This document shows positions 7,151-7,542 of a stretch of DNA of 10,905 bases, in pieces; position 1 is the first letter of the stretch; the number at the start of each line of letters is the position of its first letter. Source of the stretch: a virus (lineage: Duplodnaviria; Heunggongvirae; Uroviricota; Caudoviricetes). The position numbers and the translations under genes are program-made. The notes beneath the pieces are model-generated. The model made no database searches. It worked only from the letters and a program-made list of their open reading frames with translations, and was not told where the DNA came from. The stretch is taken from IMG/VR virus record IMGVR_UViG_2874951433_000005. One strand, given 5' to 3'.

Positions 7151-7178
7151 TTGATTTTTCCGGAATCTGTGGTAAATT
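7151..7178 (+). promoter_or_regulatory. Candidate late promoter (pR'-like): -35 TTGATT, 16-bp spacer, -10 TAAATT
   Basis: Sequence match to the sigma-70 consensus, placed directly downstream of the Q-like gene as in lambdoid phages. Confidence 0.45.
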
Positions 7179-7227
7179 CGTCATAATGATGGGCGTTTTA
7201 TGCCTGGCGTTAGAAGAGTTTCTACAA

Positions 7228-7250
7228 CCCGCCGCTGAGCGGGTTTTTTA
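7228..7250 (+). terminator. Intrinsic terminator (tR'-like)
   Basis: Stem CCCGC / GCGGG with loop CGCTGA, followed by TTTTTTATT. Confidence 0.55.
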
Positions 7251-7288
7251 TTGCGAAATTAATTACGGACCGTTATTATTCTGCTCCC

Positions 7289-7364
7289 GGCCCTTTAGCT
7301 CAGTGGTGAGAGCGAGCGACTCATAATCGCCAGGTCGCTGGTTCAAATCCAGCAAGGGCCACCA
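7289..7364 (+). tRNA. tRNA with CAU anticodon, ileX/ileZ-like (tRNA-Ile2, lysidine type); cannot be strictly told from tRNA-Met by sequence alone
   Basis: Hand-folded cloverleaf: acceptor GGCCCTT/AAGGGCC, D-arm GCTC...GAGC, anticodon loop CTCATAA, T-arm CTGGTTCAAATCCAG, encoded ACCA 3' end. It closely resembles E. coli ileX as I remember it. Confidence 0.88.
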
Positions 7365-7465
7365 TCACAAACCGCCATTAGCTTATCAGGAAGAGCAGAC
7401 GACACGATAACAGGGTTGTTGGTGCGGGGGGCGGGTCCCCGATGGCGGTCCATTATCGGTATTCA

Positions 7466-7542
7466 GCGTTGTTAGCTCAGCCGGACAGAGCAATTGCCTT
7501 CTAAGCAATCGGTCACTGGTTCGAATCCAGTACAGCGCGCCA
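7466..7542 (+). tRNA. tRNA-Arg (anticodon UCU, reads AGA/AGG), argN/argO/argU-like
   Basis: Hand-folded: acceptor GCGTTGT/ACAGCGC, D-arm GCTC...GAGC, anticodon stem ATTGC/GCAAT with loop CTTCTAA, T-arm ACTGGTTCGAATCCAGT, GCCA 3' end. Confidence 0.9.

Follow-up and report, generated by a model that had tools for sequence, protein, structure and literature searches.

Within the 10,905-nucleotide stretch of viral DNA analysed here, referred to below as the window, positions 7151 to 7542 very probably represent the late-control junction of a defective lambdoid prophage to which a mobile tRNA cassette, equipped with its own promoter and carrying a dead argN gene, has been joined. As judged from its sequence, it is the ileZ-argN-argO cassette of Stx phages (933W/Sakai type) in a decayed state, carried on a different Q/pR′ module.

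Prophage context

The window is a decayed and defective lambdoid prophage remnant which has been cut up by insertion sequences. Its genes occur in the order relE-like, rem, a truncated DUF968 gene, rusA, the Q-type antiterminator and the tRNA genes. On their 3′ side there is first a short non-toxin insert, then STnc100 (an sRNA family) and the minus-strand gene iraM, and finally a holin gene of the phage-21 type, itself interrupted by an insertion sequence. A location of tRNA genes just 3′ of Q is common among lambdoid phages (PMC3636060). Two IS3-family copies in inverted orientation (1848–3044 and 9699–10905) flank the region on both sides. Positions 3905–9706 are about 98% identical to E. 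coli chromosomes and, in a scan using one genome per species, the E. coli chromosome CP178302.1 matched 7055–10629 with 99.7% identity, the IS junction included.

The codon ATA is present in the local open reading frames at a frequency of 16.9 per 1000 codons, and 6 of the 112 codons of iraM are ATA; the E. coli average is about 4–5 per 1000. Genes in the neighbourhood that were acquired horizontally, for example the adjacent iraM, are enriched in AUA.

The Q antiterminator gene

Immediately upstream of the junction is a Q-type antiterminator pseudogene (6324–7145, + strand), a QuuQ-like frame of 273 codons identified by comparison with an intact homologue. The frame contains a single in-frame stop at codon 156 of 273 (6789–6791), where the translation reads GVYPS-stop-WEEW as against GVYSSYWEEW in the intact 273-aa homologue (L004:4915–5736), and the Q-like gene is indeed broken, as the earlier note had stated. 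Apart from this stop codon, the reading frame is that of an 'antitermination protein' (273 aa) known from E. coli prophages. In contrast to the lambda late switch, the Q concerned is a PF03589 member of 273 aa which includes a DnaJ-like zinc-finger stretch. The intact homologue matches the Pfam family PF03589 (Antiterm) with 182 bits, and the best stretch of this match (aa 178–265) falls 3′ of the nonsense codon. A functional cognate Q protein is not encoded in the window, since the nonsense codon removes the main PF03589 match. Because Q is truncated in this way, we infer that the late operon could not be switched on.

Late promoter, candidate pause element and terminator

A pR′-like late promoter, read directly from the sequence (7151–7178, + strand), lies next to Q, its −35 hexamer TTGATT (7151–7156) starting six bases after the Q stop codon. 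A 16-nt spacer separates this hexamer from a TG-extended −10 hexamer, TAAATT (7173–7178). A generic promoter scan did not pick up TTGATT-16-TAAATT, because only 8 of the 12 consensus positions match. In full, the promoter stretch reads TTGATT, 16 nt, TGgTAAATT, CGTCAT and AATGAT-GGG (7185–7193), and that of lambda pR′ (NC_001416) reads TTGACT, 17 nt, TAAATT, TGACTC and AACGAT-GGG. The −10 hexamers are identical and in both cases a −10-like element with GGG is found 6 nt further on, at equal spacing. In lambda, the −10-like element causes a sigma70-dependent pause and this is where Q loads. By analogy with the lambda layout, AATGAT and the following GGG (7185–7193, + strand), located 6 nt past the −10, constitute a candidate sigma70-dependent promoter-proximal pause site at which Q might be loaded. 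The sequence AA(C/T)GATGGGC is kept in E. albertii, in SfV and in Stx2c phages.

The terminator scan identified a tR′-like intrinsic terminator at 7226–7251 (+ strand) with the stem AACCCGC/GCGGGTT followed by a T-run, hairpin and T-run together occupying 7226–7249. Folding of 7185–7250 gave z = −2.2 and includes a terminal hairpin. Record U82619.2 (SfV) annotates the homologous hairpin as a terminator of the rho-independent type, and among the homologues the stem of tR′ is conserved and the loop is variable.

This organization is also conserved more widely. The E. albertii homologue is about 90% identical over window positions 6727–7251. Its promoter stretch has one differing base only, located in the spacer, and many differences are present in the approximately 12 nt from the Q stop to the −35 and in the initial transcribed bases. 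SfV and the Stx2c phages retain TTG, TGG.TAA, AACGATGGGC and the terminator at 77% overall identity. The elements of a lambda-type late unit, namely a sigma70 promoter directly 3′ of Q, a −10-like element with GGG in the initial transcribed region and a nearby intrinsic terminator, are all present. The earlier note had proposed both a pR′-like promoter and a tR′-like terminator, and this reading of 7151–7251 is well supported by the sequence comparisons.

Promoter and tR′ would delimit a short transcript of approximately 65 nt (about 7185–7250). In the lambda late switch, an intrinsic terminator is likewise located closely downstream of the promoter, but the first terminator-like hairpin there is about 190 nt past pR′, compared to the predicted terminated RNA of about 65 nt in the window. 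Lambda 6S RNA is about 194 nt long. In Stx phages, pR′ is constitutive and is terminated at tR′ in lysogens, yielding a short RNA (PMC7547250). The constitutive short terminated RNA documented in these phages is StxS (PMC7547250), and the StxS region of Stx2a phages is without sequence similarity to the window. The arrangement in the window also differs from the lambda and Stx late switches in that Q has a nonsense codon, and the switch therefore could probably not be thrown.

The two flanking tRNA genes

Exactly two tRNA genes were detected in the window by ARAGORN (cat at 7289–7364 and tct at 7466–7542). Both are on the + strand, and in both the CCA is encoded. Their scores with the Rfam tRNA model RF00005 are 72.5 and 68.0 bits respectively, above the gathering score of 29 bits, and the covariance model accepts both as members of the family. 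They correspond to the tRNA-Ile2(CAU) and tRNA-Arg(UCU) originally proposed, and are of the ileZ and argO types respectively.

The identity of the first of these deserves comment, as ARAGORN labels it Met, and it could on this basis be taken for an elongator tRNA-Met. ARAGORN, however, calls any CAU anticodon Met and the label simply reflects the anticodon. The tRNA is 89.5% identical to K-12 ileX, compared to 67.5% for metT and 59.7% for the initiator metZ, and can on these grounds be assigned to tRNA-Ile2 and not to tRNA-Met. Its anticodon arm is that of ileX except for the closing 27-43 pair. Its acceptor stem, GGCCCTT/AAGGGCC, includes the pairs C4-G69 and C5-G68, which we take to be the recognition elements for TilS. 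Moreover, PGAP names it tRNA-Ile in E. coli genomes and GenBank records refer to it as tRNA-Ile or ileZ. The tRNA-Met identity was rejected, the body of the molecule being closer to ileX than to metT or metZ, and it is almost certainly incorrect.

Compared to K-12 ileX, the phage-borne tRNA-Ile2 has 8 substitutions, including A27-C43 which replaces G27-U43. The second gene, coding for tRNA-Arg(UCU), was aligned with K-12 argU and with Stx2a argO. It carries a U4-G69 wobble relative to the Stx-phage allele. Twenty other loci share the argO allele of the window; elsewhere, one variant has a compensatory change in the T stem. argO is more variable than ileZ, of which 117 of 123 related loci carry an identical copy. 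The phage copies share anticodons and anticodon loops with the host genes ileX and argU of E. coli K-12 but are clustered and phage-borne.

The spacer is a derivative of argN

The spacer which separates the two tRNA genes (7365–7465) was correctly positioned in the earlier note but is 101 bp long and not 100 bp. It includes the G-rich tract GGTGCGGGGGGCGGGTCCCCG at 7421–7441 that had been remarked upon, and the suggestion that it might be the remnant of a third tRNA gene can now be made specific: the alignments indicate that the spacer is argN, a tRNA-Arg(UCG) gene, inactivated by two independent lesions. Global alignment of the spacer with four argN alleles gave scores of 47–72, compared to −52 ± 10 for 500 shuffled controls, the best of which reached −10. 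The alignment with argN is collinear and places the pseudogene at 7372–7452 (+ strand).

The remnant retains the 5′ acceptor strand CCGCCAT, U8-A9, the D stem and G18-G19 and, in its 3′ part, the T stem CGGGG/CCCCG, the 3′ acceptor strand ATGGCGG, the discriminator base and CCA (TCCA). The first lesion, at approximately 7397–7424, has exchanged the anticodon arm together with the variable loop for other sequence, with a net gain of 4 nt. The second affects the T-loop, where TTCG(A/G)GT has become GGCGGGT (T54-T55 to GG), and this change of TT to GG generates the G6 run at 7426–7431. Compared to functional argN alleles, the D stem of the remnant also has T in place of C13, and its D-loop has lost 1 nt. 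Positional similarity to argN and the loss of essential elements, which together identify a tRNA pseudogene, are both observed.

The two lesions appear to be independent events because each also occurs separately: the arm replacement alone is found in the Stx2e phage phiP27 and in locus L037, and the T-loop lesion alone in locus L068. The 3′ half of the window copy, including the flank TTATCGGTATTCA, is identical to that of L068. The RF00005 score is 53.6 bits for the intact argN of an Stx2a phage (L001) and 45.3 bits for L068, which carries the T-loop lesion only. The phiP27 spacer, in which the anticodon arm is replaced and the T-loop is intact, gave no RF00005 match, and neither did the window remnant with its two lesions, even at E ≤ 10, in a search of a 521-nt stretch. 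Since RF00005 finds nothing in the spacer, the argN copy is dead and its homology is visible only by direct alignment. A search for the donor of the replaced anticodon-arm segment, covering 1.1 Mb of related loci, revealed no second copy of any 11-mer run.

Several weak Rfam matches in 7140–7660 (Trp leader, 25.9 bits; isrK, 16.8; YrlA, 16.2), together with P9 and an antisense Plastid-ycf2 match, were rejected because all are below their gathering scores and can be explained by the terminator hairpin or by tRNA shape.

Relation to known cassettes

Homology to the Stx-phage cassettes begins at 7249, directly after the T-run of tR′, and ends at approximately 7557. It is collinear and includes the promoter and the flanking spacers. 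In contrast to the ileZ-argN-argO form, with three functional tRNAs including argN (UCG), only two tRNAs were detected in the window, where the argN slot is devoid of both an anticodon loop and the TT of the T-loop. The ileZ/argN/argO-style arrangement inferred previously from the sequence alone is nevertheless apparent, with 88% identity to Stx2a phages and 92% to phiP27.

In Stx2 phages of the 933W/Sakai type (e.g. AP012540; genes ileZ, argN and argO), the 88% identity extends over window positions 7249–7557 (306–309 nt). ileZ is identical, argO differs by one base, and the TTGNNN-17-TATTAT promoter is shared. The cassette is likewise found 3′ of Q and 5′ of the accessory-gene (moron) and lysis region. 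It differs in that argN (UCG) is intact, with the 53.6 bits given above, whereas it is dead in the window, and in that stx2AB follows it, whereas the window cassette is without toxin genes. In addition, the Q gene and pR′-tR′ of these phages are unrelated in sequence to those of the window, and homology is found from 7249 onward only.

The closest resemblance in structure is to phiP27 (AJ298298 / NC_003356), which is 92% identical over window positions 7249–7555 and has an equal gene order, a 101-bp spacer and an identical replaced anticodon-arm sequence. Only tRNA-Ile (ileZ) and tRNA-Arg (argO) are annotated in its record. The T-loop sequence of its remnant is TTCGAGT compared to GGCGGGT in the window. 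The phiP27 cassette is located after a DNA methylase gene and before stx2e, unlike that of the window, which is located after Q, pR′ and tR′ and before the non-toxin insert, STnc100 and iraM. In E. albertii, unrelated DNA follows the shared pR′-tR′, and the terminator thus marks the point at which the cassette, a module in its own right, has been joined on.

Distribution of the cassette and its remnant

A pattern scan of IMG/VR yielded 120 loci which, with curated loci and the window itself, makes a total of 126. The complete set Ile2, Arg(UCG) and Arg(UCU) is present in 80 of these, and the two outer tRNAs only, the state observed in the window, in 38. In a few loci the middle slot shows other changes: an anticodon TCT, a Lys-like TTT or deletions. 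ileZ is nearly invariant even in wrecked prophages, and the argN slot decays repeatedly.

In an exact-anchor scan, the cassette was found in Escherichia genomes only, plus two metagenome-assembled genomes which are probably contaminated. Of 5426 complete E. coli genomes, 1827 contain the argN remnant with a coverage of at least 80%; none of the 11 full-length rows that were sampled has an annotated feature under it. An intact argN-type sequence occurs in 1173 genomes, where it is annotated as tRNA-Arg. The remnant is very common and still folds in a cloverleaf-like manner; neutrality does not require either property.

Decay or retained function of the remnant

Sequence variation within the remnant class shows the pattern of a pseudogene and suggests that the remnant is evolving as one. 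The length of the G-run is polymorphic: G5 is the commonest form, G6 is found in the window and in loci L040 and L058, and G12 in L093. Apart from this, substitutions disrupt a pair of the acceptor (C-A) or of the hairpin (C-U) or hit U8, as in L093 where U8 is changed to G. A covariation test on the remnant class found 0 pairs changed on both sides and three broken, although with only 9 distinct alleles this test has little power.

It might be argued, instead, that the spacer has been kept because it specifies a functional tRNA-like RNA, which might assist as a scaffold in the processing of the flanking tRNAs or act as a decoy or a regulator. The minimum free energy fold is cloverleaf-like, and a 7-bp hairpin substitutes for the anticodon arm. 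Around this long hairpin the D arm, the acceptor and T stems and the CCA are all retained, and in the tRNA-derived structure pairing amounts to 98% of cells. High pairing, however, is to be expected of a recently dead tRNA and the folding z-score is modest, at −1.6. The tRNA covariance model gives no match and the universal T54-Psi55 positions are lost. Moreover, the G-run polymorphism shifts the geometry of the T arm, and no compensation is seen for any of the substitutions, whether they disrupt a pair (acceptor stem, C-A; hairpin, C-U) or change U8. The abundance of the remnant (1827 of 5426 complete E. coli genomes compared to 1173 with intact argN) and the occurrence of the class-B arm in at least four upstream contexts would also be in keeping with a retained function, but prevalence follows the spread of the prophage modules. 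Overall, we consider a retained function very unlikely, and the more explicit proposal, in which the remnant, co-transcribed with a tRNA on either side that looks essential, would have been exapted as a processing scaffold, a decoy for tRNA-targeting nucleases or the source of a small regulatory RNA, equally so. Decay as a pseudogene is the preferred reading.

A probable promoter carried by the cassette

The promoter scan identified a putative dedicated tRNA promoter at 7251–7279 (+ strand), with a −35 hexamer TTGCGA (7251–7256), a 17-nt spacer and a −10 hexamer TATTAT (7274–7279) which ends 9 nt upstream of the mature 5′ end of ileZ. Without exception, the 129 related loci show the pattern TTGNNN, 16 or 17 nt, TATTAT and 9 or 10 nt to the tRNA, with 13 different spacer sequences and 5 upstream contexts unrelated to one another among them. 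This provides comparative support for the earlier suggestion that the tRNAs may still be expressed from a promoter of their own, and makes Q-independent transcription from the cassette promoter plausible. The promoter travels with the cassette and its invariance partly reflects shared descent, though the spacer varies widely.

The alternative would be that the tRNAs are without a promoter of their own and are transcribed only when Q-modified polymerase, started at pR′, passes tR′, in which case they would be silent relics in the window. Indeed, the Stx-phage cassette sits within the late transcript, between pR′-tR′ and the late genes, and the −35 hexamer TTGCGA is weak, matching at 4 of 6 positions for a promoter total of 9 of 12. 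Such a dependence on read-through is, however, difficult to reconcile with the finding that in all 129 loci TTG and TATTAT are conserved, their mutual spacing and their distance from the mature 5′ end (9–10 nt) being fixed, while both the 17-nt spacer and the DNA farther upstream are highly variable. Furthermore, ileZ is near-invariant even in clearly defective prophages, which would be hard to explain if expression were confined to lytic growth. Exclusive read-through therefore appears unlikely, and transcription from the cassette promoter is retained in the scheme below.

Predicted expression and significance

In the scheme which we propose, pR′ would fire constitutively and RNA polymerase would pause at AATGAT-GGG. 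As a consequence of the nonsense codon in Q, transcription would end at tR′ and only the RNA of about 65 nt would be made. The mobile tRNA cassette of approximately 310 bp begins right after tR′ and carries its own sigma70 promoter (TTGCGA-17-TATTAT), which would drive synthesis of a precursor containing tRNA-Ile2(CAU), the dead argN and tRNA-Arg(UCU). This precursor, in which CCA is encoded, would be subject to RNase P and 3′ processing, and TilS would introduce the lysidine modification at C34 of the CAU tRNA. The two live tRNAs would then read AUA and AGA and could supplement scarce host tRNAs. AUA and AGA are the rarest codons in E. coli. Both are enriched in horizontally acquired genes, for example iraM.

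A literature search for ileZ/argN/argO found no paper, older literature being outside its reach. The Stx-type arrangement of rare-codon tRNAs is already known, as attested by GenBank annotations. What is added here is small: the widespread spacer is probably an argN pseudogene which has escaped annotation and bears two lesions that can occur separately. Labelling the remnant as a tRNA pseudogene would tidy annotation, with little significance beyond this. The comparison confirms that rare-codon tRNA cassettes move between lambdoid prophages as self-contained units, promoter included. If the tRNAs are expressed without Q, defective prophages would still alter the decoding capacity of their host for AUA and AGA.

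Variation in the cassette tRNAs

The anticodon stem of the ileZ-type tRNA-Ile2(CAU) (7289–7364) is topped by an A27-C43 mismatch (window positions 7315 and 7331), a pair that Rfam marks as non-standard. The host tRNA-Ile2 gene of E. coli K-12, ileX, carries G27-U43 in this position, whereas A27-C43 is common to all eight of the ileZ alleles found (123 loci).

The other two members of the cassette also vary among the related loci. The argO gene is interrupted inside the anticodon arm in five loci, L017, L059, L060, L078 and L131 (E. albertii), and the junction is identical each time (…CTTCTAAGCA/GCTGTGGTTGCACTCC…, where the slash marks the break). 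Either the same deletion has arisen repeatedly, or the junction is a site of recombination within the tRNA gene. Some of the middle slots, occupied by argN, show an altered anticodon instead of decay: TCG has become TCT in L026, while L014 and L053 both carry a shortened, 90 nt version with a Lys-like TTT anticodon. In the argN slot of another locus, L046, A37 is replaced by G.

The accessory-gene slot and its neighbours

A strong match to the STnc100 sRNA family (Rfam, 121 bits) lies on the plus strand at 8239–8428. In a Stx2a phage (L001:3197–3304) this element is located directly 3′ of stx2B, and in L068, whose argN allele has a T-loop lesion only, it occurs at 6683–6875, only about 108 nt past argO. 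STnc100 therefore forms the far boundary of a variable accessory-gene (moron) slot extending from the tRNA cassette to the lysis genes. The late region of the prophage also includes the anti-adapter gene iraM (8454–8789, minus strand; 158 bits). Since 6 of its 112 codons are ATA, iraM is likely to be a client of the adjacent tRNA-Ile2. The remnant's early region contains an ORF for a RelE/StbE-family toxin (3560–3847, plus strand; 54.7 bits).

Insertion sequences

Two IS3-family copies in inverted orientation (1848–3044 and 9699–10905) enclose 6.65 kb of prophage remnant. Over two aligned arms, one of 254 nt and the other of 944 nt, they are 98–99% complementary, and they encode an orfA of 92 aa and an orfB of 272 aa. 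The right-hand copy truncates a phage-21-type holin gene (9440–9724). An IS66-like accessory protein TnpA at the left end (401–1075, minus strand; 284 bits) is another insertion sequence within the same remnant.

A predicted short transcript from pR′

Transcription from the late promoter pR′ to the terminator tR′ is predicted to yield an RNA of about 65 nt (7185–7250, plus strand), for which the sole Rfam signal is a weak isrK-like match (16.8 bits). Its counterpart in SfV, mEp460 and Stx2c phages is approximately 78–80% conserved, and its positional analogues are the 6S RNA of lambda and StxS, the short terminated RNA of Stx phages. It may be made constitutively as a small RNA, even though this prophage is dead.
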